This document shows, piece by piece, positions 20,165-46,702 of a stretch of 64,000 nt of DNA. The notes under the pieces are model-generated. The model saw nothing but the letters and a program-made list of their open reading frames with translations. It was not told the origin of the DNA and did not search any database. Made by a program: the position numbers and the translations under genes. Within the stretch, counting starts at the first letter, position 1, and each line of letters opens with the position of its first letter. Source of the stretch: Pseudovirgaria hyperparasitica (taxonomy: Eukaryota); assembly GCA_010093815.1 (NCBI GenBank), contig ML996576.1. One strand, written 5' to 3'.

Positions 20165-21988
20165 CTAAAAATCTAGCTCTACAAGTACTGATCGTGGCAT
20201 GGTACAACATGCCTTGATTCTGCTCCCTTCCTTATATCCGTCGCCTATACTACTCACTACTTGTCCTTGGAGCATTTGGATCTCACAGGCTCCGCAGGTG
20301 CCCTCCCTACATCCATAGTCCGGTTCAAGATTTTCCTTTTCCAATAGCTGGAGTAGCGATATTTTAGAGCTTCTCTTCCACGTGATTGTGCGCCTCGCGC
20401 GTTTCAGCACAATCTGAGATTGTTCTGGCAGCTCTTCCGTAGTGTCGAGCTGGGCTTTCGCTGAGGTATCTCTGGCAAATGATTCGGAATGGATAGATGA
20501 TTCATTCATTTTGCAGGCAAGCAAATGGTCGCGAGTCGCTGACGCGAAGGCATTTGAGCCACAAATATAAGCCACAGAGATACATCCTGCCAGCTCGATT
20601 GGGGTGATATTCAGAGGGTTGATCATGTACGAATTCCTCAACAAGTCTTCGTAGAAGACTCGACCAGGTCGACCACCGAAATCATAGTCGCGACCAAGAA
20701 CGTCTATCTCTGGACGAGGCCTGGTGAAAAAGCGAATGACTCGCAGGTTCGGAAACGAAGGGAGCTCACGCTGGAAAAGATGACCGTCGGTAGAGCCGTC
20801 ACGAGCAACATGGACGAACACTGCAGGCGTCCTAAGAAGCGTCTTATGGAGGGAATGCGCTTTGAGCATAGCTAGAAGAGGAGTAATTCCAATGCCATTG
20901 GATATGTACAGTTGCCGAGGAGGGAATTGGGGTTTCCAATCTAGCATGAATTTACCGCGTGGTGAAAGCGCACTGAGGATGACGCCTGGCACAGCATGCT
21001 CATGCATCCATAGAGAAGCCATGGCTTGTCGTTTGATGCTGAGTCGGTAGTGCGTCGGTGGCATGGACGGGTCAGTCCAGTCCGATAGTGACCATGACCG
21101 GATATCGCCAGTGGGTAATTTGACGGTAAGGAACTGACCCGGAAAGAAGTTTGCCAAGTCCAAGTTATCTGTGGCTTCAATGTAGAACGACTTAACATCT
21201 GACGATTCTTCAGTGACTGATGATATCCGTAAGTCTCGCCATCCCTGCCACGAGCCCTTTCCTTTCATCTCTTCGTCTTCGATCATGCTCAGTTTCCTCT
21301 CCAGGATTTGCCTATTCATGTTCTGTAGTACCGGGGCACTAAGGATGCGTTTTGCACGATGTTTCGTTGTTTGGTCCGCATTCGAGCTGAAGATCGTCTG
21401 TGCTATCATCGCAACCGGAATCAGCTGTCGCAACTGGCGCTGAGGTCGAACGATACGTCCCGAACTGCCAGGACCAATAGTCCCTCCTCGTATGACTTTC
21501 AGATAGACCCCACAGAGGCCTGACGCAGCGAGCTCTGCAAGCCACGCGCCTTTCTGTCCCAACCTCCAAGCTAAGCGGCTACATGGATTCCGCCCACCAC
21601 AAACCTCGAGCTGTACTCCTTGCCCGGCGAGCGTGTCCTCGAAGTCCCAGATGTCCCCAAGCATGACATCATGCTCGTTAACTCCAGGGGGAGCTTTTAT
21701 GGTTAAATTCTCCCCCCAATGCGCCCAATCCCACGCATCGCGAGCTATGCCGAGCCGAGATGTCCAGTAGTCGTAATGATCGGAAAATAAAGCGTATACT
21801 TGTGCATCATGAACAGCAGATCTATGACCTACAATACCATTGTTGGGCTCAAGACTCAAGGGCTCAGTGGAGGGTGAGCGAACAATTGCGGTCAAGGTCT
21901 TGTGGCCATGTATGTCATGATATGCCGGTTGCGACCGCGATACAGCCACAACTTGCAGCTGAGAAGCTTTGTGCTGGTCATTTGGCAT
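20165..21988 (-). CDS. MOSC-domain protein fused to FAD/NAD(P)-binding reductase and C-terminal 2Fe-2S ferredoxin
   Basis: MOSC motifs WGENLTI and GGRNPCSRL (conserved Cys), GVYLKVIRGG; FPGQFLTV, RSWSLS, SNGIGITP, YICGS; ferredoxin GCREGTCGAC...CC; intronless; start placed at MPNDQ. Confidence 0.85.
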   Translation of the reverse strand: MPNDQHKASQLQVVAVSRSQPAYHDIHGHKTLTAIVRSPSTEPLSLEPNNGIVGHRSAVHDAQVYALFSDHYDYWTSRLGIARDAWDWAHWGENLTIKAPPGVNEHDVMLGDIWDFEDTLAGQGVQLEVCGGRNPCSRLAWRLGQKGAWLAELAASGLCGVYLKVIRGGTIGPGSSGRIVRPQRQLRQLIPVAMIAQTIFSSNADQTTKHRAKRILSAPVLQNMNRQILERKLSMIEDEEMKGKGSWQGWRDLRISSVTEESSDVKSFYIEATDNLDLANFFPGQFLTVKLPTGDIRSWSLSDWTDPSMPPTHYRLSIKRQAMASLWMHEHAVPGVILSALSPRGKFMLDWKPQFPPRQLYISNGIGITPLLAMLKAHSLHKTLLRTPAVFVHVARDGSTDGHLFQRELPSFPNLRVIRFFTRPRPEIDVLGRDYDFGGRPGRVFYEDLLRNSYMINPLNITPIELAGCISVAYICGSNAFASATRDHLLACKMNESSIHSESFARDTSAKAQLDTTEELPEQSQIVLKRARRTITWKRSSKISLLQLLEKENLEPDYGCREGTCGACEIQMLQGQVVSSIGDGYKEGSRIKACCTMPRSVLVELDF

Positions 21989-22834: not shown

Positions 22835-24494
22835 ATGCGATTCAATCACTTCGTCATCGCCGTTGCATTGGCATCGGCCCGTTGCGTGCAAGGCCGTCCG
22901 AGTTCGCCGTCGGATTCTGTGTTACAGATCCTCTACTCTATACCTCAAGGCAACAACACTGAACTCAAGGGCCTTGTGCAGGAAGCACGTCCAATCATTG
23001 ATTCTATTGGCAGCCAAAAACCGCCAAACGATCAGGCACAGCGTAACGAGAATGCTTGTACAATTCTCAAAACTGTTCTGAGAGGTCACTACACCGATTC
23101 GACGAATCAAGTATCCTACGATACACTCCTTCAGAAGAACTAGTGAGTCCCACTCATATTAAGATGTGCCGTTTGCAAATACTAAGACTCATTCAAGTGC
23201 ATCCCAATGCCACCTTCCACCAGCTTGCTTTATTACACCAAACAGCAATGCTGCAGTCGCAATCACCCTCAAGATCATTGATCTTACTCAAGCGAAGTTC
23301 TCCGTCCGCTCAGGGGGACACAATGTAAATCCGGGCTGGGCAGGCGTCTCACACGGCGTGATAATCGACACGCAAGAGTTGAATACCATTCAGCTTCGTC
23401 CGGACAGATCCAGCGTACGAGTGGGCACCGGTAACCGCTTTGGTACTGTTCAGGAATACCTGGATCCATACAATGTGAGTGTGGTCTCTGGTCACACTGT
23501 CCAGCCCGGTGTGGGTGGTGTTCTTCTTGGAGGTGGGTTGCCTCTGGTGAGTACCTACACAGGGATGGGTGCCGACAACATCAAAAGCGCAGAGGTCATC
23601 ACCAGTGACAGTCGAGTTGTTATCGCCAGTGCGACAGAGAATCCTGATCTGTTCCGTGCACTCAAAGGTGGTGTCAACAACTTTGGTATAGTCACGCATT
23701 TCGAGCTTTATACTAGCAAAGTTCATGACATCTGGTTCCGCGCACTGGTATATTCATCTCTTGATCCCTTACCGGTCTTTGACGCTCTACAAAAAACCCA
23801 GGTGGCGATGGAGTCTGACGACAAAGCTGGATTGGTCTTCACGATTCTCCCTTTCGGAGGGTTCATGGTAGATTTTTTCTACGTTGAGCCTACCTATCAG
23901 CCCGAGGTATTCGCTGCGTTTGATGCTCTCACGCCAGTCTCTGCTATTCATGATGCTGTCAATGGCACTGTGTATTCAATCATGCAGAACCTGACCAACC
24001 ACCTCCCACCAGCAAATCGCTATAGCACTTCGTGCACAATCCGCGTTGATACAGATCTCTACACATCCGTGTACAACCGTTATCATGAGATGACACAGAA
24101 GTACTCAACGAATACTACGGCCTTTCAAATGGTAATGCATCCTTATGGATCGGCGACGACTCGCATCTCGAAGGAACGGGGTGGTAATGTAATGGGCGAT
24201 ATTAATGGGGCGCAAACAATTCTGACGTATGGTGCTCAATGGACTGACGACAGGGATAATGAGAAGATCTACGATATTGTAGATGAGATAACCCAAGCTA
24301 CTATCGATGAGGCGGAGCAGCGCGGGTTGGACGAAAAGTTCATCTTTGCAAATGGAGGATCGTTCACACAGAATGTCCTGGCTAGCTACGGAGAAGAGAA
24401 CCTGAAGCACATCCGCGCTGCAAGTAAGAAGTTTGACAGGAAGCAGATGTTTCAGAGCTTGCAGAATGGTGGGTTCCTGGTCAGCCGTGCATGA
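22835..24494 (+). CDS. Secreted FAD-linked oxidoreductase (BBE/VAO family)
   Basis: Signal-peptide-like MRFNHFVIAVALAS; FSVRSGGH (flavinylation His); VGGVLLGGG; LFRALKGGVNNFGIVT; intron 23143-23197. Confidence 0.9.
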
Positions 24495-25160: not shown

Positions 25161-25984
25161 ATGGACGAAGAAACCAAGAGACCTCGTGACAGCTCAGTTC
25201 ACATCCTCCTGATTGGTGCGTCTGGCTCTGTGGGCAAGCTCGTGCTGGAACAAGCCTTAAGCAGAGGTATGTACTCCATCCCGCACCCATCTGGACTGTA
25301 CAATTCCAACAGTCCACCTGCATAGGCCACGCTGTCACAGCCCTCGTCCGGAATCCGGACTCTCTCGACTATGTTCGTGGGAAACCCGCCTCCGAGAACC
25401 TCACAGTCCTCCAAGGAACTCCGCTCAACAAAGACGACTTACAAAAGGCAATCTCGCACATCAAAACGCATCCCCGACCGGCCGTAATCGTCACACTGAA
25501 CAACACGGCCAAAAGTGCCCAGGACCCTCCTCCTCCAGGTCAATGCCCACCACATCTTCAATACGACGTCCACAAGCTTCTCCTTCCGCTCATGTCGCAG
25601 CACCAGATCAACAAATTGGTTGTGCTGCAAGCTCTGGGCGTAGGGTCTTCGTGGCCCAATCTCGCTTTGCCTATTCGCCTGGCGGTCAAGTATACGTCTG
25701 TGCACTTCAGCTGGGATGACCACGCCGACGTGGACAGGTTTGTGAAGGCCTATGGTGATGACAACGATGTGCAGGGACACATCAAGTGGGTATTGGTGCG
25801 CAGTTGCATGTTCAGCAATGGACCCGCAAAAGAGGCCCATTGCTATGGTGAGGATGGAGTAGGGTTGCCGTGGTTCCCCAGTATTTCTCGTGCAAGCGTG
25901 GCCAAGTTTCTGTTAGATTCGTGCGAGAACGATGTGTGGGACAATAAGACACCTGTGGTTGCGAACAATGCTCCAAAAAGGTAG
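25161..25984 (+). CDS. NAD(P)-binding Rossmann oxidoreductase (BVR-B/AflX-AvfA-like), 254 aa
   Basis: ILLIGASGSVGKLV...GHAVTALVRNP after intron 25267-25325; WVLVR and ISRASVAKFL. Confidence 0.8.
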
Positions 25985-26268: not shown

Positions 26269-29200
26269 TTATTTGGCCAAAGTCTGGAGCGCAGCCAAAG
26301 ACTCACCAAAAGGAATACTGACAAGGTCCGCAGTCTCACTTGCAACATGCATTGCTTCCTCCACTGCCTTTAACATCCCTCCCTGCCTCATTGCATTTAA
26401 TCCAGAACTGATCCTTCTTCCTAAGATGGCAACCTGCTCGAAAGAGAACAAATCAACGTCATACTCCAGCCGTAAAGTGAGGATTGTGTCACTGATGGCC
26501 GAGAACTCAAACATGATGCCGAACTTCGCGCCCTCGGCCCACGATAGCACTGGCTGTAGTCCATCAATCGGTAATCTGGGACTATCACGGTTGTCGTGGA
26601 ATGTAACCATGGCGTCGAAAAGTGCGTGGTTGGGGTGCTCTGAGCCCGACACTGCAGCGCGCAGCGAATCATCGGAGCTCTGGCGCAGGACCTGCAGGAG
26701 TTGGTCCCATGGCAGGGCGTGCGCGAGTGCTGCTTGCGCAGACGTGTGGACTGAACGGACAAATGAATCGACGTCTGACTCCTTGGCCGGCTTATAGACA
26801 CGAATGGGGAAAGGCTGAAGGAAAAGGCCGACTGTGTTGAGATCTTCCGCCGAGCGGCCAAGATAGGGGGCGCCGAGAACCATATCGGTGTGAGAAGACC
26901 CCTCGATCTGCAGCGCGAGATATACTAGAGACAGAGCGGTCTGATGAAAAGTGACGCCTTGTCGGGAGTGCAGATCCTGCAGGATGGACATGGATTCAAT
27001 GGGAAGCATGTATAATTTTGACGAGCCGGAGTATGATGTACGAGGCCGTGAGAGATAGGGTTTATTGTGGTGCTCGATATCAGTCAAGTATGGGGACCAG
27101 AAAGCCGCCGAGTCCGCTTCTATGGGCATCATCCACTCTGTGTCTGAGTAGAAGCGTTGAGGTCGCGGTAACGTGTCCGCACCATTATATAAAGCGGCGA
27201 CTTCTTGAAGAAGGACCTCGAGAGTCTTCAAATCGCAGATTATGTGACTGATGCAGACTAGAAGCTGTTTCTCTGCCACCAGTACGCGAATCGGATAGTC
27301 GCTTGAGAGATCGAACTCGGTGTTGATGGCTTTTCGCAAGAGGAAGGAATCTACGGCCAAAACCTGGGGCGGCTTCTCGAATAGCAAACGTTGGACAACG
27401 TTTCCTCTCTGCCTGAACATTGATCGAAGAATGTCATACCTGGATAGAACAGTATTGAAAGCCGTGATAAGGCAGTCTCGATCAAGTTTTGAATCGTCGA
27501 GGTCACAAAGGTAGGAAACATTGAATGCTGAGGATCCCAGATCAGCCTGGTACTTCATGAACCAGTCACGCTCGATGGGGGACACGCTACTTTGTCCAAG
27601 TCTCGCGGAAACTGACCCATTATGAGATTTGGACAAGCGACGTGCACCTTTACCCATAATGACCCTCGCCATATCGGATAAGACTGGGTTCTGGATGACG
27701 CTCCGGATATTGACACGTTGCCTGAGTACTGAAGACAAGCGACTGGCGAGCTGAAGCTGTAAGATGGAATGTCCACCCAGTGAAAGGAAATTGGAGTCCT
27801 TGTGTATTTGAATGTCTCGATCCATCTTGAGGACGATGCGCCATACGTCTGCGATGATCTTTTCTGTGGGTGTGAGGACAGTCGACCCTAGTGTCGTTCG
27901 CTCCTTTTGTTCCAGCAAATCAAGAGCTTTGTAGTCAAGTTTGCCAGCAGAGGTAAGAGGGAAGTTCTTGAGGCGAATAATATGTCTCGGCATGGCGTAA
28001 GGAGGCAGTTCCTTTGCGAGATTCGACTTAATCGATGCTACGGTGGCAGTGGTAGTCCGAATGGCAGCGATCAGATAATCCTTGCGTTGAAAGATAGCAA
28101 CGCCATCGCACATTGGAAGCACTCTCGCTGCTCTAACCTCGAGATCATGTAAATCAAGTCGGTAACCGCGCAGCTTGATCTGACGATCGTTGCGGCCTAA
28201 TAAATGAATCTCACCAGTCGCAGGTTCGAAATATCCCAGGTCCCCTGTTCGATACATTTTTTCATTACTCTCAGGCAAAACTGCGTCGAGGAGAAACCGA
28301 GCTGCATTTTGCTCAGGTAGACCAATATATCCCTTCGAGACCTGTACACCAGCCAAGAATACCTCGCCAACAGCACCGGGAGGTAAGACTTGCAAGTTGC
28401 GGTCCAGGATATAGAGCCGCGAAGAGGGATTGGGATGCCCTAAGTTTACGCATTGGTCTGGGAGTAGTCGTTTGATTGTTGCCCCGCATGTAGCCTCTGT
28501 GGGTCCATACATATTATACAAAGATAGCTTCTTGCCCCATGTGTTGCAGACGGATTGCGGCACTTGTTCGCCGACGAGATATACCTATGGGTAACATTTT
28601 AGTCAGGCACAACATGATCTGGACAGGTAGGCTCACATTTTGGAGACTAGGAAAGTCGTGAGGCTCCAGTACTTTTGCAATTGACGGAGTCAGGATTGTA
28701 GATTGACTTTCACGCAAGTGCCCAAATGGATCTTCGGCATTGATTGGAGCAAGTCTTAGCGTCGCACCATAGCTCAGGGCAGAGAAGATCTCGTGGATAC
28801 TTCCATCAAAGACAGGGGACATGACCTGGGCCACAGTCACCCCAGGAGCGGCGAAAAGGCGCACTTGTTCATCTTTTTGGAAGGCGACGAGGCCCTTGTG
28901 AGTGCATCGGACAGCTTTGGGCTGACCTGTGGAGCCAGAGGTGAAGCACACATAAGCGAGACGGTCTGGTTGAGGCGAGCGTCGCCTAGCGAATGGCTGT
29001 CCACTGACGACACTGCGGTTGTAGGCTTGGACATTGCATGTGTCTGTCGGTGTTACGGACGAGAGAATCTCATCAATATATAGGAGCTGAGGCGCCGGCG
29101 CGTCTTCGGGACTCGTAGGACTATTTTTAACATATTCGATGTCCCCATTGCCTCGTCCGGGTATCAAAAAGACGCGTGCACCACTGCGCTTCAGGTTCAT

Positions 29201-31233
29201 TCCTCGCAGTTCTGCTGGCGCCGAAGGATCAAGTGGCGTATAAACTCCTATGGACGGCAAGCAAGTCAGCTACAATGATAATCTTCTTCAATAGATGGAG
29301 TCATCATCTTGGACGCACCTTTCGCCTTCAGGATCCCATATATGGCAATCAGCCAGTTGATGGATCGATCTGCATACACGCAAACGCATTCCTCCGGTTC
29401 GATAAAAGCAAGCGTATGTGCCACAGCGCCTGCAGCCTGGTCAAATTCACGATACGTCAATTCTACGCGACCTCGTGCGATCGCTATGCCTTCTGGGTTG
29501 CTTTCAACTGCCTTTTCAAAGAGCGTCACCAAGTCTTCATGTTTCGAATCATCAAACGTCTCTACAGAGAAGCAATTGCTCCACTCCATTACGTTCTTGA
29601 CCGCTCTGGCAGGAAGCAGGCTGTCAAGGCAGCTCAGCAGGGGGTTACTGGTCTTGAGAAGTGCGTGCATGCTTTTCAAATAGACCTCGCCTAAGAGCTT
29701 CATGTCATTCCACTCATAGTAGCTCGAATTGAAGATGAGCCGAACTTGACCATGTCCTTCGACGATGATGGACAGAGGAATGTCCGATTCCATCTCAAAC
29801 TTCCGCGGAGCAGGACTGTCGGTGAAGTCTGATGCCTCATCATCATTGCTAAATTGCATGGCAAGGACAGATGAGAATTGACGATCGACCCCATCTTCGA
29901 TGCTGGACGACGAAAACTGATTCAGATCTTGCATCTTCTGAGAGACGTCATGTACTAATGACTGAGCATTCAAGGCCGCATCAACAGCGACAAACAATGG
30001 CAGAGTATTGATCAAAGGCCCAACCACTTCGAATATTCCGTCGACGGGCAAGTCTCGCCCTGACATAACGATGCCAAAGCAAACTTGGTTGCTGTTCGTA
30101 TACTTGCTCAAGGTCAACGCCCAAGCTGCCGAGTAATAAGCTGCAGGTGTGAAGCCATTTGCCTTGCTAATCGCTAACAGACTTTCGTCAGGAAACTGTA
30201 CTGTCAAGCTTTCCGTTCGGCCGGGCTGTGTTCCTGAAAGCCGCTGCGGTGATAGAACCAGTTGACGGGCTGCTGATGCGAACTGCTCGTGCTGTTTGTC
30301 CCAGAACTCGCGTGCTGCGTCTTTATTAGACATCTGTATATCTTTGATCTGCCTCACTATAGCGCCAAAGTGGGGGCCTGCGCGGATCTCCTCGCCTCTC
30401 AGAACGTCGCGGACTTTGTTTCGAATGAGCTGGATGGAATAGCCGTCGATGAACGCGTGGTGGACCCTCCAGACTGTGATAATCTTGTTAGGCTCTGCTC
30501 CAATCGGTCCATCGATCGTCACTATGTCGAACGATGAAATAGATCCGTCGACTTCCGGTTGTCGGCTCATCTGCTCGTCGAACGCTTCTTCGTCCGGGAC
30601 ATGCAACTCTCGCCATCGAAAAAGGGCATTTGGTGCGACAGCCATTCCCTGCAACAGTTCTGAAAATATGGGTTCAGACTGCACAACACGCTCCCACGCA
30701 AGTTTGATGGCCTCTAAGCTCTGGCCTTTGAACGCGTCCTGGATGGTAAGGACATTAAGAGAAGGGGTTCGTAAGCTTCCGCGTAATAACAAGAGTTGCA
30801 ACTCTGTTAGGCTCTCATTATGATGCCCATTTAGGATATCCTCTGCAGTGATTATGTCATGCGCAGAGCCGTCCAGGGCCTTCGCTGGCGTTATGTTCAC
30901 ATGATCTGAACCAAGCTCTGGCGAAGAGAAGTCGATCGCCGCATAGGGGTCTGGTGTAGGGGGCGCTGTTATCGGTGCTGGAGCTGCCAGTGATACCAGC
31001 TCATCGAGCCGCTTCGCACGAAGTATGGCGCCTGTGGGGAGCAAGAGTCCATTTTTGTGACAATGTGCGGCAACCTTGATGGCTGATAGGGAATCGCCCC
31101 CTAGAGCGATAAAGTTGCTGTCGTCCAATACATGCGATTCCGGTACCTCAAGGATGGTCGATATAGCCTTAGATATCAGGCTTGGCACATGTAGGCCGGC
31201 AAAAGGGACATGTAGTGAGTTCTTGATGTCCAT
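26269..31233 (-). CDS. NRPS with T-C-A-T-C architecture (AtaP/AclP-type ETP-family diketopiperazine synthetase), ~1613 aa
   Basis: T1 FIALGGDSL; C1 HHAFIDGYS; A core motifs FTSGSTGQPK, YNMYGPTE, YRTGD, GRNDRQIKLRGYR and AGKLD; T2 FLSLGGHSI; terminal C SHIICD; introns 29248-29318 and 28585-28636 restore one frame. Confidence 0.92.
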
Positions 31234-31584
31234 AGTCGAGGTTTGAGATTTGAACTAGCGAGACCCAATCTTCAGCATGCAGGTGCGTATCTATAACTTA
31301 CAAGGGAAACCCTTCTTCGCAGGAACTTCAGCGGAGCTGGATAGGTGCAGATACCATCTCCGGCTGAGTGATGCATCCGAGACTAAGGTTCGTTACGTGG
31401 GAGCCACAGACCCCGATCAGTTCCTCGGCGCCTAAAGAGAGCTCAAAATAGTAATACCATACGGAAGACCAAGAATCGACAACTCGCTCAAGGATCTAGT
31501 CCTCGTATCGGCTAATGTGTCAGAAGCTCCGTGTATCGGCCCAATATCATAGCTGACAGGCACCGATAGTACAGCCTCACCGAA

Positions 31585-31595
31585 TCGGCCACCGA
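31585..31595. promoter_or_regulatory. TCGG-N3-CCGA palindrome (GliZ-type consensus) in the NRPS/monooxygenase divergent promoter
   Basis: TCGGCCACCGA, next to a CCTCACCGA variant of the shared motif (31575-31583). Confidence 0.5.
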
Positions 31596-31726
31596 TGGAC
31601 TGTGGTGATGAGGGTCTCACAATTTCACGGTGCATTTTGGACTGACGTGAATGACTTCTATTTGGTACATGAAACCATCTAGACGCAACTTACACTCCAA
31701 ACATTTCCTCTCCATGTTAAGGCAAA

Positions 31727-33023
31727 ATGTCGAGTCCCAAAGTTGCTATTATCGGAGGTACGTATGAGGAATTTTCTATCTAATACGTATGATGCTCTAA
31801 CGCCTAATGTAGCTGGCCCTGCTGGTCTTACTCTCGCCAGTATATTGCATAAAAACTCTATAAATGTCACTTTGTATGATTTAGATGCCGATAGATATTC
31901 CAGAAACAGCGGCGGATCACTTGACATTCACCCTGACTCGGGACAACGAGCATTAAAAGAAGCCGGGCTTTTGGATGAGTTCTTGAAGTACGCACGTCCA
32001 GAGGGAGAAACGCTCCGAATCATCGCTCCAGATGGAACGACATTGATGGACGAAAGCCGAGGTGATGAAGGTCGCCCAGCAGACGAGTTCGCCAACCGTC
32101 CTGAGATTGATAGACGGCAACTACGCAGCATGTTGCTAGATTCTCTGAACGACTCAGTCATTCAATGGAAATCTAAACTGCTACGTGTTGAGGACAATCC
32201 GGGCCAAAAGCTCAAGCTACACTTCGCAGACCGCACCGAGGAGGGCTTCGACTTTGTCATCGGCGCTGATGGCGCGTGGTCAAAAGTTCGCTCTCTTCTT
32301 TCTGACGTGAAGCCCTTCTATTCCGGCGTGGGAGGTCTTGAGTGCCATATCACCGACGCAGATGCAAAGCACCCAATGTTAGCACAGCATGTTGGCAATG
32401 GCATGTGTCTCAATCTTGGCTCTGATAAGGGTATCATGTGCCAACGAAACGGTGATGGTGGCATTCAAGCATACGCATTCGCTCGCCTCCCTGAGACATG
32501 GTATCAAACTTGTGGGATCAGCTTCACGGATCAAACGGCGCGAAAGGCCGTTGCTGATGCTTTGTTCGCCGACTTCAGTGAGAATTTGCAATCTTTGATT
32601 CTGGAGAGTGACGATGACACTGTCGGCCGGCCTCTTTATCAATTACCGGTCGATTTCACCTGGTCGAATAACCCTAGAGTCACGCTTGTCGGAGATGCAG
32701 CTCATTTAATGACACCATTTGCGGGAGTAGGCGTGAATGTGGCCATGCAGGATTCTCTGGAGCTGGCCTTGGAGATCATCTCTGCAAACAAATCTGGATA
32801 CTTTGGAAGTGCACTGGAGAACTACGAGCTCAAAATGTGGAAGCGAGCACGACAGAACGCCGAGCAAACGATGATGTACTTGAACTTGTTCTTCCATCAC
32901 CGCGGCGGTATCGCTATGGTGGAGTACTTTGCAGAGAGGCAGAAAGCCATGAGGCTGAAAGAGGCGCATGGAAAGGACATGGCCAGTGTTCAGACTATTG
33001 AGCAAAAGACAATTGTGGACTAG
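31727..33023 (+). CDS. FAD-dependent monooxygenase, TetX-like group A
   Basis: MSSPKVAIIG|AGPAGL (intron 31758-31812); GGSLDIH, RPEIDR, IGADGAWSKVR and VTLVGDAAHLMTPFAGVGVN. Confidence 0.9.
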
Positions 33024-34883
33024 CTACTTGATACGAGTAGTAGGATCGCTGTTACTCAGCCTGCCGATTGATTAAAAGCCGTGCGCATATTTTAGAAAAA
33101 GCAAAGAAAGAGAACTGAACTCAGAGTCTTTGTTTGATGGAATACCTGCTTCCAGCCAAGCTTCATTAATTCTGTGAAATCTTGACTCCGGACACTGTCA
33201 AATCATGGTTAAGTCTCTGCGGGCTTCCTGGTCAGCTTTGTCTGTAGGTATCACAGCCAATGCTTGGCAAGCAATCGTGATCGGTCTTACTTCTGATGTG
33301 ACTGTCTGCTTCATGTTCCTTGAAACAAAGATCAAATCCTATCCGGATAAATACGATAATCACCCTCCTCACCGACTCGTCAGTGTCACCAGATTTGGTG
33401 AGATATGTCGCCAATATCGGACGCAGTTCCTCCGGTGACACAAAAGGCAGACTCAGAGTCGGCTTGCGTGCTGCTCCGTGTCTCCTTTCTAGACTTGGCC
33501 TGAAACGCTTCATGAAATGATAGCATAAGCGCATGAACAGCGGCCTGGGCGGAACTGTATCCTCATCGTTGTCGTTGCCCTTGACTTTTTGTCAGGTATC
33601 TCGGAAAAGGAGGAGTAGGATAGGGCCAACGTCGCTGTAGCCTGACTATGACGGAGCAGGTCCATGAAAATATTACCTAAGTAATAATGCTCCGTGTCAC
33701 CAATCTGAATCCGGCGTGGTCGTGCTTCGTACAGCGTACATGCAGGGCCTTACTAGGACACCCACAAACACGGGCCTTGGCCATGCGTTCGTTGGTCGCC
33801 TCCGTCGTGCTGGAAATATGCATCCATCAGTGCCCAATTATACTATATGCAGGCAGACTGACAACTGTTTTACGGGGTGCAGTCTAGATTCAGACACACC
33901 GCTAAACTTATAGGACGCGCTTTATGCACATGTATGCTTAGATGCCTAGCGTGCAGATCCGCGGTGAGCAGTCGAACAGTGCTGCGCACCAATGAAGTTC
34001 CAAGGTGTCATACTCAACCACGATGCAGGTGTGTCCCACACCGGATGGATAGTTTGAAATTAAATGCTATCCAAGTGTTTACATAGGTTTTGATCATTCT
34101 AGAGCATGAAGATCGCGAGTCCTTTACGGAGGCCTAGAACGCCATTGGAGAGTACGACAAACCGTTACTCAGGTTGAAATAAGCCCTCATAGCAGCGTAG
34201 CATTATAATGCTATTTCAGGAGTGTGGCTCGATCATGGCGTATTTACACGTGTTTATGCTCTGCACGCTACGAGTTTATGTAAATCAATACGTATTAAAT
34301 CAGAAATAGAATAAAGTCATTGGTTACATCTATTATGAAGAGAGAGAGGGACTCTAAAGTGGAAATAAAGGTTTTAGCTAACTAGCTGCTAGTTCTGATT
34401 AGGCGAGTACGACCCACCACGTCACCAATGACTGTTTATAATACCAACCACACTCATTACGCCCCAAACTCTGTGCTCGATTCCTTGTGGCTCTGACAGT
34501 AGGAACTTCCAAGAACCATACGATTCCTCCTCGTAACTTATGTCGTTCGACTTCTTCCGGAGGATTGCGCTTACAGTCATCAACGTACGCTGACGGGTGC
34601 GTTGCATTCCTACTCCCTCTTGGCGAGTCCAACAACTGAAATAGGACGTTGCGACATAAAGGGTCCGTCAGACATGTTGTCCCTGACAGGTTTGTGGCGT
34701 CGCTACAGTAAACGTTCGAGATTTTCGACTGGGCCATGGTGACGAACTATGCATTCAGCTGCAATAGTAACTAAGATCTGATTGAAAAAGTCGAAAGCTT
34801 TTCATCGTCACGTCTCGCAATGATTTCAAATTCTATACTGTGACCACGTCCATCAGATCCAACCTCGCGCTATCTGTGTCATT

Positions 34884-36059
34884 ATGGACCGCTCAGCGAC
34901 AGCCAACGTAACAGAACTTGGCAGGAAAAAGAGACTTGCCTGCGATAATTGCCATGGTTCAAAGGTAAGATAATAGTAACAGTCTCCATATATGCAGCTG
35001 ATCATATATAAGGTCCGTTGTACCGGGGAACAAGACGGTTGCCAAAGGTGCCGAAAGGGCGGTAAACAATGTCTCTACAGCGAATCAAATATGGGTCGCA
35101 CTATAGGGGACAAGAAAAAGAGGGTTTCCAGATCAAAGATGTCCGGAACAAGCTCTCTGGATACTTCATCTTTCAACTCAACACCGTTATATGGAAGCTT
35201 CGAGCCCGATGCTTTCATGTTCGAAGATCCCTGGAATGTTCCAGGGAGTGCCGGTATACTCGATGACTGGACGTTCTCTGATGACATTCCCAGCTTTGAT
35301 CTCAACGACAGCTTGACTTTCGATGCGAACGCACCACTGGCCTTATATGAGACCTCATCGAGCTCCAACAGCTGTGTAGGAGCAAACGGCGGAAAGACCG
35401 ATACCATGATGTCCGATATTCGCTTTACACCTATGCCGTTGACACCCCAACAAAGCTTAGCCTCTCTCTCCCCTTGTTCTCTTTCTACGCCGGCCTCTAG
35501 TAGAGTTGGAGAGGATCCATGCAGCTTTGATACTCCTACAACAACACCTGAAGTTGGCTCTTGGATTCAGAGGGTAGAGTCTCTGAGCAATAAGTCCACC
35601 ACGAAGGGTCCTCCTCTTGACGAATTACTCCGACTAAGTCAAGCGCTACTTCCAAGCATGAGCAACGTATTAAAATGTCATAATGTCTTCTCAAATCCTA
35701 TATCCACTCTACTACTCGTCATTGTTTGTCTTTCACAGACGCTGACACTCTTCGAGCGATCGTCACACGCATCCGAGCAGGATACTCAGACCAAGGAAAG
35801 GCCTAGCGTCTTACTGCATCTCGGAGGTTTCCAAGTCGACTCAGAAGCACAGAAGATGCTACAGACCCATGTTATGAATAAAGAGCTGTCGAAGATGATG
35901 GAAATTGTTGGTGAAGTGAACAAAGTGGTGCGGGACTTAGGGCTAGCGGAGGATGAAGCTTTGTCAAACACACATGAGTTGTTGCTGGATGACATCAGGG
36001 TACGGATAGAGACTTTGGTGTGTAGCCTGAAGGAAGCCGGAGGTTATTCGAATTTATGA
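34884..36059 (+). CDS. Zn(II)2Cys6 transcription factor (AflR/GliZ-like pathway regulator)
   Basis: ACDNCHGSK|VRCTGEQDGCQRCRKGGKQC across intron 34965-35012; C-terminal LHLGGFQVD. Confidence 0.9.
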
Positions 36060-36586
36060 ATACGATTGGAATCATATATATCTGCAGTACTGTGCTCTTT
36101 AACTTGATTGTAATATAGACTCTAGGATGGGACCCAACAAAAGTATTGTTTACTTCAATACGAAAGCATTGGAATGACACCTGTCCACGATGCTTGAGGC
36201 TGGGCATACACATTATATAATGTTCTATGTAAAAGTACGAGAATAGACTTATGATCAATTACGACAACACCAAAGCGTCCGTTAAAGCAATCGTTAAGCA
36301 CAGTTCAACAAAGTCTATTCTTGATTCTAGATTATGTAGTAGCATAACAAGCGAGCGTCTAATTTCGAATGATCCAATGCTATATTACCTCCAACTGTGT
36401 CGCTCACTCTACTCTTATCACCTTTCACCCTTCTATTTATAACTCTCAATTCAGCTTACAACAATGATGGACATAAAACAAAATCGCGCCAAATACACAC
36501 ACCACATAGAAAAGAATCGCTCTATCTACACCACACGTACCACCGGGTCCAAGCAAGATACGAAAATGGACCTGCAACCCGATCGC

Positions 36587-37388
36587 TTAATAACCATCAA
36601 CAATTTGTCTCTCTGTACGCACCCTCAATCGTGATCTAGCAGGCGACACGGGCTCACGGGCTGCAGTGCCATTACCCTTGTTTTGATAACAGCAATTGAC
36701 ATCTTCCCACTCAGGAGGCACGACCTTAGTAACTCTCTCGCTCGTCTTTCGCTCATCCAACTGGCGAGCTTCACTCAGGGTCTTGACCACCCCTTTTAGT
36801 GCCTCCCGTTGGAAAACACTGAAGCCAGACGGCTGATTGATGCAGCCCCAAGCGCGCCAGTCTACGGCCGTCTCGTGCTCGCTGACCTTTGTGACAGTCA
36901 TGCTGTCCCAGAACCCGTCGAAGATCATTTGGTGGTCGCTTGTATTCCAGTAGAACATTGGCCGGTCAGCTTGTTGCAAGGCGAGATTGAAGGAGCCATC
37001 AGGTTGTGTGGCCATGTTGTAGATTTGCTCGACGAATTCGACACCGTTGGCGGGCATGACGCGAACAGCGCCGGGAGTCAAATCTGTGCCGGAGACACTG
37101 ATGGGGTGCGGGACGCCGATCCAGGCTGTTTGGTGGACTGTGATGGGTTAGATATGGGTTGATACTGCTGAGTTTTAACTTACAGTTCTTCATGATTGCA
37201 CTGACATCCTCGATTTTAGCGCCTAGTGTGATTGTTGAGCGCGATCGTTGGTAGGGCATATCATGGGAACATGTGCATGCGCCTTCGATAGTCTCTTGAG
37301 AGCATGAAGGAGGAGGTGTGTAGCAGACTGGGCTGCTGGACACGAAGTGTGATAGGATGGACAAAGTGATGATGTTTATGAGCTTCAT
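36587..37388 (-). CDS. Secreted protein, possible SRPBCC/START (polyketide cyclase-like) fold, ~251 aa
   Basis: Signal-peptide-like MKLINIITLSILSHFVSS; intron 37138-37183; helix-grip-like pattern ITLGAKIEDVSAIMKNF...W...PGAVRVM...FVEQI...TAVDW. The fold call is inference. Confidence 0.6.
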
Positions 37389-38158
37389 TTTGCTAGAACT
37401 TGAAATCGACTGATACTGTACGTAAAGATACAATGAACGACCTTTCAAGGAAATTGCAAACTTGAGATTCTTTGATTTTTCACTTGCTCGAGAACCGACT
37501 CTTTGTATTTCAATGAACCAGATAACGTCGTTGCCTTCACCCCACCGGCCTGCGCCCTCTCGTGTTGTTCGATGCGCCACTTCGCATCGCCCATTGGAAG
37601 GAGTCTCAGTCATGAAACGGATAGCCTATTTCGAGACTCGTTGAGGCTATGGCTCAGCTCCTCAATGTGCTCATGAGGAGCTCATTTCGTCGAACACGGG
37701 TGATTACGTTGCTATCATGCGATCCTTCGTGTGGGATGACTAGTCTCTCGCCACGTTAAGCCTCGCGGAATGCGTAACGAGTGTGAAAAAACAAAGTTGT
37801 TTGATGGTGGTCAAGAGGTCTTAGATCTCGGTCTAGACTCTAGAGCAAGCCCAACACTGAGCTTGGTCCAGCGCCTTGTCTGTTCAATCGCGCACGGTTC
37901 TGGAGGCTCAAGCCAAAAGCATGGATTGTATAAATGGCAACCACGTGGCAAGCCACACATCCGGCTCGATGGGTCCTAGTGATAAGCCTCGCGAAAAGGA
38001 TTCTCTTTGGATGTAGACATTGTCATTCTGCATTCGATGCCCTGAGTGAGATCCCAAATCGAGAAGCCTTGTTACGAGAGCTGAGAAATCCCGAAGGAGT
38101 GCTGACAAGAGTAAATGTTCCATACTACGCGGACGGTGTGCGAAGCCATAATCTCAAG

Positions 38159-38235
38159 TCGGCGAGGTTTTCTCACAAGGATTAAAACGTGGTCAGCAGG
38201 GTTGTTTGGCGATCGGCGGTTGACAACCTCGCCGA
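38159..38235. promoter_or_regulatory. Inverted pair of TCGGCGAGGTT motifs upstream of the GliC-like P450
   Basis: tcggcgaggtt at 38159-38169 and aacctcgccga at 38225-38235. Confidence 0.5.
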
Positions 38236-38461
38236 CTGCCAAGACTCGCTAGCGGAATGTTGCATGTCTTGCCGAGAACAAAGTGTCGGAGGGTTGAGAT
38301 ACATCACCGTTCAAGGTTTTATGATTGTGTTCTTGGAAGGGCTGTTAACAAGCTTGAGATGAACGCGACCTTCTTTACTTGAGGTTCTCAGCATACTTCT
38401 CGCTACGAACTTCGAAACCCCCTTTTCTCTACCCCTTTTGTCTACCCAGTTCCATAGCACC

Positions 38462-40079
38462 ATGATCATGGCGGTCTCTAGTAATCCCGTCCTGCTTGAT
38501 AGATTCATCTTGCTTGTGTTACCACTCTTTTGTGTCTTCATTCTGGTTGAATTACGATATTCATATGCTCGCCGCTTTTTTGCTGCTCTTTTCTCTATAC
38601 TCTTCAGTGTAAGAAGATCTTATGAAATAGTGTACAATCGTTAACAAACCAAAGACATACCTACATCAAAAATACCCAATTATCCAGCACGAGACACAGC
38701 AGCCCCTTCCATCACTCCCGTTCACTTTTCCTAATGGTCAAGGCGACACAGAAAAGTTTCTCCACGGACGAACGAACAGCGCCAAATGGCAGAACCGGTA
38801 TGGATCTCTATATCGGATCTGGTCGGGTCAATCGCCGGAGGTGGTTCTTACTGAGGCTCGACATGTTGAAGCTGTCTTCAAGGACTCGCATACTCACCAA
38901 AAAGCTCACGCGAATGATAGTGGACAGCTCATGTACACGCTCCTTGGGTCCTGCCTCGGACTGATCAGCGGTCAAGGTTGGAAAGCAGTGCGCAAAGCGT
39001 CCGAGCCGGCCTTCTTGCATCGATCTACTTTGGCTTACACCGAAGACTTCACAGAATTGACGAGGTCTTGGATTGCAGGGCTTGTGGACAACCCGGAGTT
39101 TCGCGATAATGGTCGCTTACATCCCGTCGAAGACTTGAAGCTCTTGCCATTCTTGGCAGTTGCTAAAGTTTTGTTTGGCGACTTTGGTGACGATCTAAAG
39201 GCTCGGCTACTCGCAATTATTCCTGGACGAGAACAGCTTATGAAATACGTGGTCAAAGGAGGCATGCCCCGCTTCTGGATTTCCCAGTTCCTCCCGCTGC
39301 AAGCCAACCGCGAGTTGAAAGAATTCAAGTCAAAGTGGGCTTCGTGGACTGACGAAGCATACTCCCGAGCAGTCGAAAATTACTCTGGCGACTCGTTTAA
39401 GCCTTCGATCATTGACATGTACTCAGCTGTGGCTGAAGGTACAATCACGAGGGAGGAGGTCCTGCAAACACTAGATGAAATGTTGTTTGCCAATCTAGAT
39501 GTTACCATGGGAGGAATCTCATGGAACGTGGTCTTCTTGGCTGCCCATCCGAGTATACAGGAAGAATTGCGGAATGAATTTGGTGGAAGAGCTGCCGATC
39601 GAAACGCATATCTTCTGGAGACTAATAATCTTCTTAATTCCTGCATCCTGGAGTCATCTCGGCTGCGGCCGCTGGCTGCCTTCTCCGTCCCACAGTCCTG
39701 TCCTAATGTTCGCGTCCTGGACGGCTACGTTGTGCCACCAGGAACGAAATTTATAGTAGACGCATATGCTCTCAACATCCGCGATCCGTTCTGGGGTAAT
39801 GATAGGGAGCAGTATCGACCACAGAGATTTTTGGAAAGACAGAAGCTCGGCAAAGATACGCGCTATCGTTACTGGCGGTTCGGATTTGGACCGAGACAAT
39901 GTCTAGGAAAATATGTTGCCGATCTTCTGATCAAATGTTTGATCATCGAGCTGTTGGAACGCTATGACTTGAGACTGTTCGAAAGTAAGGAAGCAGAATG
40001 GCCATGGAACGATGAAACCTGGATTCATCACCCGGAGATGGTGGTGATGTGTAAACCGAGAGAGAAAGCAATATTATGA
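38462..40079 (+). CDS. Cytochrome P450, GliC/SirC-type diketopiperazine alpha-carbon hydroxylase family
   Basis: After intron 38609-38654: FPNGQGDTEKFLHG...YRIWSG.SPEVVLT; LDEMLFANLDVT; ESSRLRPLAAFSVPQS; heme motif FGFGPRQCLG. Confidence 0.85.
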
Positions 40080-42068: not shown

Positions 42069-43834
42069 CTATTTTCTTAACGTCACACGACATGGATATC
42101 CGTCTGCCGGATGACTTCCTCCATTCATAATTTGGTAGGCCCTTTCTCCTTCAAGTCTTTTGATTCCGTCCGATGGATTAATCTTGTCCCATTCATCATA
42201 AACTTCCTTAATGTCAAATTCCCTTACAGTGAGAGCCAGAGTCACTTTAATATCCAGCATTGCCAGTGTCTGCCCCAGACAGTTTCTAGGTCCATGTTCG
42301 AACGGTCGCCAAGCGCCTTTGACCGGGTGCAAAGGGTCGCTCGAATTGACCAACCAGCGTTCCGGCAGAAACTCGTTAGGCCTTGGCCAGTATTTGGGAT
42401 TACGTTGCAGAGCTCCGTGTACGATCCAGATGTTCATTGTATCTGTTGGGTAGAGTTGTCCGGAGTCGTTGTCTCGAAGGGATACATCAGGTCGACCTCC
42501 ACGCATGCCAGATGCAGCAGGAAACAATCGCATGGCTTCCTTTATGACAGCCTCCGTATATGGCAGCTTATTCAACAGATCTGGCTGGTCACAAAGAAGC
42601 TTGGGGGTGTCCGTCAGGTTCTCTCCAAGGACAGCGTCGTGCTCATCGCGAAGCTTTTGCATTGCGCCGGGATTATGCTGGAGAAGGTAGTAGCAATAAC
42701 AAATAGACGAAGACGTGGAGTCGTGACCGGCAAAAAGAAACAGTCGGATCTGTGTAGCGGCCCATGACTTAAAGCTATTGTCTAATCGATCGGCGGTCTC
42801 TCCTGATTTGGACGGCTTACCCTCGCGCATGTAATCGGCAATTGTCAGGTTCATGATGGATCTTGTCGAGGCAGCTTTGTCGTCGCTGGCCCATTCTTTG
42901 AAACGCTGGTCAAGCTCCTTGGAAATGTAATTGTTCATCCGATGGCCGTTGTACCATTGCATTATGGGTCTGATCGGGTTCCATCGGATGAATGGATTCA
43001 ACTCGTCATTGAGGCATTGCCACGAGATTTGACTTCTCATGGCGGTGGCAAGCTCGTTGTGTTGCGTCTGCGAGTGGAGTCTCGAGTTACTAGAAACTGT
43101 CAATACACGCTTTCTGGCCAGGAGAAGCTGAACCCACAATGTGACTGCGCCAATTATGTCCATAGTGTACCAGAGCGTAGCTTCGTCTAGAGAAAACATG
43201 TCCTGCTTGCGTGCATGCGACCTGAGGACCTCGAGATAGACCAGCGCTTCTTCAACAATGTGATGGGTCTGGTTGCGGAGGTAGCGATCGTTAAAACCTG
43301 GACTGAACAAAGCTCGCGACGATTTCCATGTGGGACCGTTCATGGTGAAAAGATTATCACCACCAGCGAGTGGCTGGAAGAACGGCTTCAGCGAGCCAGG
43401 CTTGATCAAATCATGTTCCTGACAAGCTTGAATCGCATGACTAGGCGAGGAAACGATAAGGAATGGGTCACAAAATGGCCATAAGTCCAAGTAGAAGAGC
43501 GAATCCGTCTTTCCAAATTTGCGAGACAGAATGACGAACGCATCAGTCTGCTGGGAATCCTTCGGCATTGTCTTTAGTATTTCCGGCATTACTAGAAGGT
43601 GGCCAAGGATGGGATTCCATGGTGGCATTGGCTGATCAATTGTGAGTCCAAGGTTCTGGCCACTATACATTGCAGATATAGACTTACCATGCCAGCTTCG
43701 CGAAGTCTGTAGAAAGGCATGCGAGCTTTGTAGCCTTTGTAAATGACGTACGCAGTAAAGCATAGCCATAGTGGGACAGCGTAGAACAACACCACAAGCC
43801 ATGCCGGACCATGGTCCAGAAATGAGAAGACCAT
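42069..43834 (-). CDS. Cytochrome P450 (VerA/StcS/AflN-like)
   Basis: TM anchor, PMPPWNPILGHL, FYLDLWPF, FLFAGHDSTS, EAMRLFP, PERW and heme motif FEHGPRNCLGQ; two introns. Confidence 0.88.
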
Positions 43835-44594
43835 TGCGGATTGAGTCTTGGACGGAATATGTGCTGCACTAATCAAGACGCGCGGTCCAAAGGTGCCTTT
43901 AAGGTTGTCGCGTCTGGCAGCTGAGGTCGTGCAATGTTTCAAGCTCGGTATTGATACAGGTAAGAAACAAGCAATAGACCACTTTTGTATCCACCCTGCT
44001 TACCTTGTGGACAAGCCTTGCCATCATCTGCGCCGCATATGAAAGTTCGCCCGTGCCTCAGTTTAGCCCCACGTCACTCTATCGGCCTTGGTGGAGATTG
44101 TTATTGAGGCTGCGTACCTGCGCGGTCTGCTAAACACACATCCACATCCTAGCGCTTACTCTAGTCTAAGACATTCGAACAAAGAGGGTCGCTTACATTC
44201 CTATGTTCATGACTCTTCCGCGTACAGCCAACGGCTTGTCTGGTGGCCTCTCTGGCTAACGCACACGCTTCGAACTGCTTCCGCAAAATATCGACGTGAA
44301 TGTTGTCGAGAAGGCAACCGATGAAGGTGTATCATCTCGGCTAGAGACACAAAAGAAACTATCAAGTTGCTCAATCAGCACACAATTGCATGCACGGATT
44401 CACTTTCGAGGTACGCTAGTGCCAAACAATATATCCGCTACACATTTATTTCGAACAGAAAACATGATCTATTTACCCACCCTTCCAAGACTGGAACGCT
44501 CCACATTTAATGAAATCTACGGTACATGTTGCGCATTTCCACGTTGGGCTTAAACCGAGAGCCTGTCTCTAAGCTCCGAGGGGAGAGCTCTTGT

Positions 44595-45965
44595 TTACCG
44601 TCTAAATGTATCGCGTGGCTCATATTCCTCATAAGCTGTTGATGGAGGGCTCACCTCCGATTCGTGGGTAGACTGGACTGACTTTGGTATGTTAGTGTGA
44701 TCCTCAGCTGGCGAACAATTTGTGTGACTTACAAACTGCTTTTTCACAACGATGCTCCGATTAGATTCGCTACCGCACAAGGTATCGTCCATACTGTGGA
44801 GTGCATGACTTCGATTGTAGCCCCTGATAAACGTCCCCAGCCCGGTCATGGTCGGCCGTGGAACCTGAGGCAGGTGACCTATTTCGGTGTCCTCGAAGTC
44901 GTTCTCGGACGATTTGTTCTTTCGGCCTCGGAGTAAACGTTTGTACGAATAGAGCGGTGGTGGGGCGTGCTGGCCCGACTGATTGTGTTTCACAAATGCC
45001 GTTCGGAAGGTTGTCAATGATGCCATGAAGACTGCCACAGCTGCCTCCATGAACTGCCAAAACAGCGACCACGGGACGTCGGTGCCGATATCATTCTTCA
45101 CTTTGCTCACTCGTGTTATGGCCATCGCCACCATCACGAGCGACAGGCAAAGGAAGATACCTAGGACCATTTTCTGACGGAACTTCAAATTTGATTGTCT
45201 CAGAATTATGACTGGAATGCTAACAACTACAAAGTGTTAGATATGCCTCTGACTGGTATGTAAACTCACTCATGATGTCAGTCAAGCAGTCCAGTCCTGT
45301 GATGAATCCAGTCAAAGACACATTCAACAGTGAGCGAGACGGATCCAAGCACTTCACTACTCAAAGGTCAGCGAAAATGAAGATAAAAGATGTAGGTGGC
45401 GTACATGAGTCGACGCCGGAGTAAGGGCACAGTATGAACGGCTCGGAAACCAGAAACATCCAGGTTACTATCGTAAAGACAACGACCGACCAATACCAAA
45501 TGCGAATGCCACGCACTCTATCGATGAGGTTATAGAAGAAAGCCAGGAAAGAGAACTTGACACAGAAAATTGCAGTCCATGCCAGGCAGAGAAACGTTTT
45601 CAATGGAGTTGTGCCGTTAATAACCATATCCAGTTCTTTCGGCGTGAGTCTGTACGCAAGGGTCACATCGTGTTGGATCGCATTGTCGAGGAAGTACGCC
45701 TCTGCATTCACGAAGAGCATGGCAGCCGATACACACAGACAGGCCAGAGCAAAGATGAGGAAGTAGTCATCGAGAGCCAGCCGTCTTTGTGTTGTGAGGC
45801 GTGTTGTCAGTCTCGCAAGCAAAGTCAAAACCGAAATGCCAAAGAAGATCCCGATGGTCACCTGAATGTATCAGCATGCTCAAGTTTTTAACCTTATAAG
45901 GATCCAAAGCGCACCTCATATGTCTTCCGATGGATGGAGGTGTAACTGTCCGTATCTATCTCCAT
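44595..45965 (-). CDS. PTH11-like/rhodopsin-domain integral membrane protein
   Basis: RLALDDYFLIFA, VKFSFLAFF, LDCLTDIM, EAAVAVFMASL; several TM segments and introns. Confidence 0.8.
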
Positions 45966-46702
45966 CTTTCTGCTATCGGTAGAGTCGTTCGACTCGTATC
46001 AGATGTACAAGTTACGATTGCTAAAGACGATTTGCATTCCAGAGGAAGTATGGAGAAGATTACAAGTAAGCCGAAGTCGAGGTTCACGCTGCTGAGCTGG
46101 CTATGCAGCCTTCATATGACCCCCATGCGGAGTCTTCGGTTATTGGCTGGGGCAGCAACATGGCTGAAATCTCACCCTGCAACGTGAGCGCAACCACTAC
46201 GACTATTTTTATCCAGCTGTGGATATCGATGTGTATCCTTGTAGTATTTGGGGTCTGAACTACGCAATCTTGGCGGTCTTACGTCCTGTCAGCGCTTCTG
46301 CAAAGGCGTCAACGGGTTTGACTTCCCTATAGTAGTTGTGAAGCCGAGGTATTGCAGCACGAGAAGCAATGTAGCCAGAATGAATGTCTCGGTCTTCGCT
46401 TTCATGTATTCTGGATTGGTCAACTCCCAAGGGGCTGATTGCGATGCTACATGGGGCAGGCGATAAGGGCAAAATCTACCGACCGGTCAGGTCCACAGTA
46501 ACACGACTCCACATATACTTTCTTATTTCAGTGTCAATGTGTTTCCCTTATTCAGCATACAGTCCTTTAAGTATAAAGTGGTCAGGTCTTCCCAGACTCA
46601 TATAGAATGTTACTGGATGTTACCTCCTGCTCAACATATACTCGCGTATTTCTCCTGGCCGATTTTTCAAATTATCATTTCCTCGAGATTCCTCACATAG
46701 TC

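Follow-up and report, generated by a model that had tools for sequence, protein, structure and literature searches.

In the biosynthesis of epipolythiodioxopiperazines (ETPs), the cytochrome P450 (P450) GliC puts hydroxyl groups on the C-alpha atoms in a diketopiperazine (DKP), and loss of water gives an electrophile that is trapped by GliG; deletion strains without GliG-type capture give sulfur-free O-methylated products (PMC10086836). The aranotin (ata) and aspirochlorine (acl) clusters combine a GliC-type P450 with a nonribosomal peptide synthetase (NRPS) whose single adenylation (A) domain serves for Phe-Phe, a layout reported for AtaP and AclP (PMC10086836), and they carry the G, J, I and T genes. 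We analyzed a 64,000-nucleotide stretch of DNA from Pseudovirgaria hyperparasitica (the window) that holds an NRPS and a P450 of these types, but with a TetX-like flavin monooxygenase instead of G, J, I and T. We lean towards reading this locus as an offshoot of the ETP gene-cluster superfamily that is intact, conserved and independent of sulfur, and a sulfur-free product appears highly probable.

Clusters of comparable content have been described. In Aspergillus niger, the NRRL3_00036 cluster contains an NRPS, a P450, a flavin adenine dinucleotide (FAD) oxygenase, an NAD(P)-binding protein, a regulator and a transporter, and the accessible text lists no sulfur genes (PMC8151901). Two NRPS-dependent yellow compounds, at 409.1384 and 425.1331, were reported there with their structures unsolved (PMC8151901), and a 2025 study still lists the yellow metabolite as unnamed (PMC12368960). 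In Monilinia laxa, six co-regulated genes comprise an NRPS of T-C-A-T-C layout (T, thiolation; C, condensation), a UbiH-type FAD oxidoreductase, an NAD-binding short-chain dehydrogenase/reductase (SDR), a regulator, a P450 and an unknown gene (PMC8988988). This cluster was called ETP-like in a text from which the words glutathione, thioredoxin and sulfur are absent (PMC8988988). The product of the Botrytis enzyme BcNRPS1 has never been isolated (PMC8467525). Earlier, reduced clusters with only M, P and C were described, P and C belonging to the ETP clade and standing without G, I, J and T (PMC2045112). From its gene content, we take subclade IIIB of Patron 2007 (A. fumigatus #2) to be the has cluster for hexadehydroastechrome. 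Like the window, it holds P and C without G, I, J and T, and its product binds iron; unlike the window, it includes an O-methyltransferase, and no TetX-like enzyme has been reported for it. The has cluster has a two-module NRPS and a prenyltransferase, and the astechromes are sulfur-free pyrazinones. No has-type O-methyltransferase linked to P and C was found by Pfam scans of the window right of its alpha-actinin gene.

The window DNA is fungal, with about 49% GC. Its P450, NRPS and monooxygenase are deposited P. hyperparasitica proteins, all on one contig of 1,454,559 bp. The genes on which the comparison turns are the following.

26269..31233, minus strand: T-C-A-T-C NRPS of the AtaP/AclP/BcNRPS1 type, single A domain, 1613 aa (Pfam domains, motifs, deposited protein).
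31727..33023, plus strand: TetX/AbsH3-like class A flavin monooxygenase, 413 aa, head-to-head with the NRPS (PF01494, Tet(X) model, AbsH3, P0241).
38468..40079, plus strand: GliC-type P450, 521 aa, heme and ExxR motifs intact (deposited P0001, motifs).
25161..25984, plus strand: NAD(P)H-binding atypical SDR, convergent with the NRPS (PF13460; start placed by eye).
34884..36059, plus strand: short Zn2Cys6 transcription factor, about 375 aa, probable pathway regulator (PF00172, E 4.5e-4; six cysteines across an intron).

The NRPS gene has three exons (31233-29319, 29247-28637 and 28584-26269) totalling 1613 codons plus a stop, the length of the deposited protein P0121. The serines of both T domains, the HHxxxDG motif of C1 and the SHxxxD motif of C2 are kept. 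The T-C-A-T-C layout and homologues named GliP-like or BcNRPS1 assign it to the DKP-forming NRPSs of the ETP clade, and it is 36% identical to the AtaP-like P0228. The A-domain pocket, DGHLYVMCGK at positions assigned by GrsA numbering, is the same as in the A. niger and M. laxa enzymes and matches the AtaP-like P0228 at 9 of 10 positions. The P450 gene has two exons, and its product is deposited as 'cytochrome p450 monooxygenase GliC'. It is 44-58% identical to the 119 relatives listed, many of them named GliC, and 47% identical to P0105, a thioredoxin reductase-P450 fusion of AtaTC architecture, which assigns it to the GliC family; against PDB sequences only distant P450s were found (best E 3e-21). 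A preliminary description of this DNA had named a GliC-type P450 and an ETP-type NRPS; the deposited full-length proteins, domains and motifs bear this out, and both genes are intact. It had also proposed a phylogeny as a check on the P450. In the 121-row tree that we built, the enzyme falls in a 51-member split (support 1.0) holding the window lineage and 13 others, for example Plenodomus; this places it among listed relatives, in a set without proteins named GliC, SirC, AclC or HasH.

We then looked for the missing sulfur module. Pfam scans (E≤0.005) covered 53 open reading frames (ORFs), mostly long, and 291 stop-to-stop ORFs, made up of 287 gap ORFs of at least 45 aa across the whole window and four oxidase exons. 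No glutathione S-transferase (GST), gamma-glutamyl cyclotransferase, dipeptidase, aminotransferase or thioredoxin-reductase family was found in these ORFs, exons below 45 aa and frames mostly inside known genes lying outside the scan. Linked G, J, I, T and K genes are accordingly absent within the window, as judged for GliG, GliK, GliJ and GliI by Pfam only; for T, the best match in a tblastn search of the window, queried with the reductase part of P0105, had an E of 2.8. The only methyltransferase family match in the window, a PF01596 O-methyltransferase at 1426-2367, lies left of several housekeeping genes; none appeared right of alpha-actinin in the Pfam scans, and tblastn of the window with the methyltransferase part of P0078 gave no match at E≤10. 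The claims that neither GliG/K/J/I/T nor a GliM/GliN methyltransferase lies between alpha-actinin and the right end of the window therefore held up. By gene content, the cluster is not an ETP cluster.

The TetX-like monooxygenase, left out of the reasoning of the preliminary description, is the most informative neighbour. It matches the Tet(X) model with an E of 7.5e-51, far below the model cut-off, and AbsH3 with an E of 5e-69. Linkage across fungi was scored by proxy, contigs of equal size in the homologue tables being taken as one. This proxy gives counts that are too low, since a single row stands for a whole 90% cluster and the listing stops at the best 120. Among these 120 monooxygenase homologues, 29 of the 48 inside one clade (SH support 0.905; the window's own included) were linked to an NRPS or P450 homologue, against 0 of the 72 outside it; for contigs of at least 30 kb the counts were 29/42 and 0/27. 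Locus tags check the adjacency in four species: Kalmusia (012108/012109/012114), Daldinia eschscholtzii (005052/005053), Apiospora marii (013271/013275) and Myotisia (005621/005622). The trio of NRPS, P450 and monooxygenase recurs in Dothideomycetes, Sordariomycetes, Leotiomycetes and Eurotiomycetes.

The NRPS tree was built from 99 rows, 21 long and mostly bacterial multi-module rows having been dropped from the best 120. The window NRPS groups with full support in a 33-row lineage including Byssothecium, Kalmusia, Apiospora, Daldinia, Annulohypoxylon, Xylaria, Cryphonectria and Periconia; a P450 was found on the same contig, among the matches listed, for 23 of the 33. A second group, a separate and fully supported clade, holds the Botrytis enzyme, M. 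laxa EYC80_001899 and the 1547-aa A. niger enzyme. Two monooxygenase subclades, one for the window lineage and one for the A. niger/Monilinia group, mirror these two NRPS groups within a single clade, and a monooxygenase stood on the contig of 15/33 and 10/37 NRPSs, respectively, among the matches listed. None of the 29 NRPSs outside both groups had a listed monooxygenase on its contig, including the NRPS on the contig of the AtaTC-like fusion.

The comparison with A. niger could be made gene by gene. We took P0167 as NRRL3_00036 (from the species and its 1547 aa) and P0274 as the 436-aa product of NRRL3_00037; the coding sequence lengths agree with PMC12368960. As in the window, that cluster has a T-C-A-T-C NRPS (39.9% identity), an FAD-binding monooxygenase (47.9%), a P450, an NAD(P)-binding protein, a second FAD enzyme and a Zn2Cys6 factor. 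The window differs in its short regulator (about 800 aa in A. niger), in that no major facilitator superfamily transporter was found, and in the SRPBCC-fold and MOSC genes nearby. The Monilinia EETBC/Botrytis BcNRPS1/Sclerotinia cluster (PMC8988988, PMC6941272) is likewise close: its NRPS EYC80_001899 (P0156) is 40.0% identical to that of the window, and an adjacent UbiH-type FAD oxidoreductase, a 221-aa NAD-binding SDR, a 509-aa P450 and a regulator are described, with no sulfur genes listed in the accessible text. It differs in gene order and regulator type, and is labelled ETP-like in print. The set of the NRRL3_00036, BcNRPS1 and EETBC clusters, a T-C-A-T-C NRPS linked to an FAD monooxygenase, a P450, an NAD(P)-binding protein and a Zn2Cys6 factor, is present in the window. 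For the NAD(P)H-binding protein the agreement is one of family: as PF13460, it is described in the same family terms as the small NAD(P)-binding genes in the A. niger and Monilinia clusters, and its exon found nothing among PDB sequences. Synteny was reported for NRPSs above 50% identity and 40% was used for the orthologue list (PMC8151901); the window enzyme does not reach 50% identity to P0167. As judged from sequence, the window probably belongs to a sister lineage, or divergent arm, of a described but chemically unsolved cluster family. Since reduced P and C clusters (2007) and the gene set (2021-2022) were already in print (PMC2045112, PMC8151901, PMC8988988), the surprise is smaller than the preliminary description held. 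A survey of Hypoxylaceae (PMC8403587) does not, as far as searched by term, discuss the window's cluster. We found no paper in which the product is solved, this locus is dealt with or these clusters are brought together as a sulfur-free family, which is weak evidence, most subscription chemistry journals being outside our reach.

Expression and mass data from A. niger bear on the same question. Across 43 strains, the NRPS co-varies with the genes for the monooxygenase, the P450, the NAD(P)-binding protein and the second FAD enzyme (r 0.93-0.97; PMC12368960 supplement). The cluster is strongly induced on overexpression of the unrelated factors NRRL3_01372, 07888, 08781 and 11765 (PMC12368960 supplement). 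In the same supplement, 'glutathione' and 'thioredoxin' each appear in one row, neither co-induced; an unlinked GST could escape this table, because it seems to hold cluster genes only. We next searched formulas for the two masses, allowing five adduct types, with a 5 ppm tolerance, N1-5, S0-2 and at least 8 unsaturations. This gave 14 formula pairs that differ by one oxygen. Two oxygens or more alongside N2 in both members occurred only in sulfur-free pairs, namely C22H20N2O6/O7 (as [M+H]+) and C20H22N2O6/O7 (as [M+Na]+). The latter corresponds to cyclo(Phe-Phe) plus 2 CH2O and 2-3 O, and might, speculatively, represent a methanol adduct. These formulas favour, without proving, a sulfur-free Phe-Phe product, and concern a 40% identical relative.

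What is observed is the gene content, the intact reading frames and the co-occurrence of NRPS, P450 and TetX-like monooxygenase; from these we infer a chemistry. The NRPS would use Phe, the presumed substrate, twice in its single A domain and release cyclo(L-Phe-L-Phe), as AtaP and AclP do, and the GliC-type P450 would hydroxylate C-alpha. With no cluster GST to trap the product, loss of water would give an acyl-imine and, by tautomerization, a conjugated benzylidene-DKP or hydroxypyrazinone, which would fit the yellow colour in A. niger. The TetX/AbsH3-like monooxygenase could then add further oxygen, the PF13460 protein could reduce the imine or a flavin with NAD(P)H, and the Zn2Cys6 factor would switch the genes on. 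The gene set tips the balance slightly towards this order of events, that is, C-alpha oxidation of cyclo(Phe-Phe), dehydration to a conjugated dehydro-DKP or pyrazinone, then oxygenation. A sulfur-independent fate of the oxidized DKP had been suggested in the preliminary description, and both the conserved NRPS, P450 and flavin monooxygenase set and the published clusters support it. The locus points to what becomes of the GliC-type P450 product without glutathione capture, a step known so far chiefly from the shunt products of deletion strains. It links the orphan yellow metabolite of A. niger with a cluster induced on infection in stone-fruit and grey-mould fungi as parts of one family, and it warns that an NRPS with GliC does not predict an ETP. 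As an A. niger strain making related compounds exists, the sulfur question is directly testable.

Several observations weigh against a sulfur-independent offshoot. The pocket code is common to 78 of the 99 NRPS homologues listed, and so does not separate ETP from non-ETP enzymes. The two monooxygenase-linked NRPS groups are joined with weak support (SH 0.767 for 99 rows; approximate likelihood ratio test 61 for 36 rows) in unrooted trees, and the linked P450s do not fall into a single clade (unrooted tree). The A. niger NRPS was not induced in the NRRL3_00042 overexpressor (0.34 in the table of PMC12368960), unlike in the 2021 report, and 9 of the 14 formula pairs, for masses of unfixed adduct, contain sulfur. 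Products may also differ from those of A. niger, because the window NRPS is only 39.9% identical. The absence of sulfur genes holds for the window, at a locus of which no product or enzyme has been characterized. Lastly, no listed monooxygenase was found on the contig of any of ten NRPSs nested in the window lineage (Xylaria, Cryphonectria, Coniella, B. calthae and Aaosphaeria; P0139, P0141, P0142, P0144, P0147, P0148, P0150, P0159, P0160 and P0180). NRPS and P450 stand together in 8 of the 10, and this subgroup may differ again in gene content. In the homologue trees, the proteins of B. calthae, Lachnellula subtilissima and Aaosphaeria are placed among those of Xylaria and Cryphonectria, against taxonomy, which may reflect transfer or patchy loss.

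A different sulfur-free outcome, which we regard as unlikely though worth keeping in view, is that oxygen is placed on nitrogen by either the P450 or the flavin monooxygenase. The product would then be a metal chelator resembling astechrome, a hydroxamate or an N-oxide pyrazinone, and the MOSC reductase would act on N-hydroxy compounds in tailoring or self-protection. HasH is classed as CYP_GliC-like (PMC11376295), astechrome-type compounds are hydroxamate Fe(III) complexes (PMC4208449), and the MOSC protein of the window matches 6-hydroxyaminopurine reductase (E 1.3e-8) and YiiM (E 8e-13). However, a MOSC gene is not listed in the accessible descriptions of the A. niger and Monilinia clusters, deletion of Bcnrps1 did not lower siderophore excretion (PMC8467525), and the listed P450 relatives, a set without a named HasH, include AtaTC-like fusions.

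Somewhat less probable still is a split or borrowed ETP pathway with a sulfur-containing product. GliG/K/J/I/T orthologues would then be encoded past base 64000 or elsewhere, or the imine would be captured by a housekeeping GST. The contig extends far past the window, there are still P450s, an ABC transporter and an oxidase in the right part of the window, and unlinked helpers and a missing gliK are known from ETP pathways (PMC10086836). Yet Pfam scans found no sulfur gene in the 24 kb right of the GliC-type P450, the related clusters were delimited by co-expression without sulfur genes, and Patron 2007 found no ETP cluster in Botrytis (PMC2045112). Sulfur-containing formulas do fit the A. niger masses within 5 ppm, but those with N2 have only one oxygen in the lighter compound, too few for a DKP.

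That the locus is a degenerating ETP cluster which lost its sulfur module on the way to pseudogenization, an alternative also raised in the preliminary description, is very improbable: the window proteins do have fairly long branches (0.34-0.54 substitutions per site) and a truncated copy of a related cluster exists in A. cristatus (PMC8151901), but the NRPS, P450 and monooxygenase carry no stop or frameshift, match full-length deposited proteins, keep their catalytic motifs and have homologues that travel together across four fungal classes, and no sulfur-gene remnant was found in the gaps between genes by Pfam scans or tblastn. The cluster is probably not a relic.

Returning to the sulfur-independent offshoot, a broader and distinctly tentative proposal is that the entire glutathione module gave way to a TetX-type monooxygenase together with a small NAD(P)H reductase, forming a widespread third branch of the ETP superfamily. 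The Botrytis, Monilinia, Sclerotinia and Aspergillus clusters might then make an undescribed sulfur-free Phe-Phe class, and the window lineage (Pseudovirgaria, Daldinia, Annulohypoxylon, Byssothecium, Kalmusia, Periconia) would form an arm not reported so far; in the window, the SRPBCC-fold protein and the YiiM-type reductase might add new chemistry on a reactive imine or N-O bond. Four further features belong to the surroundings of the core genes.

36587..37388, minus strand: small, probably secreted SRPBCC/Bet v 1-fold protein, head-to-head with the P450; candidate pathway member (modelled relative, Foldseek).
22835..24494, plus strand: FAD-linked oxidase (FAD_binding_4), probable signal peptide; candidate pathway member (domain search).
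20165..21988, minus strand: MOSC, FAD/NAD and 2Fe-2S protein of YiiM type (N-hydroxyl reductase-like); candidate member at the left cluster edge (domain search).
31585..31595, no strand: GliZ/SirZ-type site TCGG-N3-CCGA, in the 493-bp divergent promoter of NRPS and monooxygenase.

The small protein has about 13 distant relatives (15 matches, two being unrelated long proteins), a family of about 200-255 aa, Cys-containing, probably secreted, unnamed and with no Pfam match. The model of a 74% identical relative (pLDDT 76.5) has an SRPBCC/Bet v 1 fold, and Foldseek with this model matched Bet v 1, PYL and START proteins; an Atlas search with the exon itself gave no usable match. The protein starts with a signal-peptide-like hydrophobic stretch, and so a predicted role in binding or export is as likely as catalysis. 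Two relatives of 208 and 220 aa are close in length to the unknown genes of the A. niger cluster (208 aa) and the Monilinia cluster (221 aa), a likeness not used as evidence because these relatives are nameless. For the MOSC protein, a function as sulfur donor, an idea taken from the name of the domain, was not adopted as the main reading, its matches being N-hydroxyl reductases.

The motif TCGG-N3-CCGA (PMC10086836) occurs twice in the window against 0.83 expected, a count reached in 21 of 100 shuffles and not significant window-wide; with one mismatch, there were 22 sites against 20.8 expected. The second site, at 57564, is upstream of the last P450. The motif was rejected as a regulon marker because the promoter of the GliC-type P450 lacks it; the copy between NRPS and monooxygenase is suggestive only, as a putative regulator site. 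An 8-mer common to 3 of the 5 core promoters was set aside as within chance by a rough estimate.

To the right of alpha-actinin, which lies at about 17.5-19.5 kb, the genes follow one another as MOSC-FAD/NAD-2Fe2S reductase (-), FAD-linked oxidase (+), NAD(P)H-binding protein (+), NRPS (-), flavin monooxygenase (+), Zn2Cys6 factor (+), small secreted-type protein (-), GliC-type P450 (+), second P450 (-), rhodopsin-domain membrane protein (-), third P450 (+), ABC-G transporter (+), fourth P450 (-), a protein without assigned family (+), FAD/BBE oxidase (+) and an edge frame. No housekeeping gene inside the window closes the cluster on the right. The three additional P450s, the membrane protein and the transporter, at 42069-57260, may extend the cluster or form a separate one. 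Further right, two long frames have no Pfam match, one at 63429-64000 (-) and one at 58841-59521 (+), the latter Cys-rich with a hydrophobic, signal-peptide-like start. Among the left-hand genes, a T5orf172/MUG113-domain protein is encoded at 3323-4918 (+).

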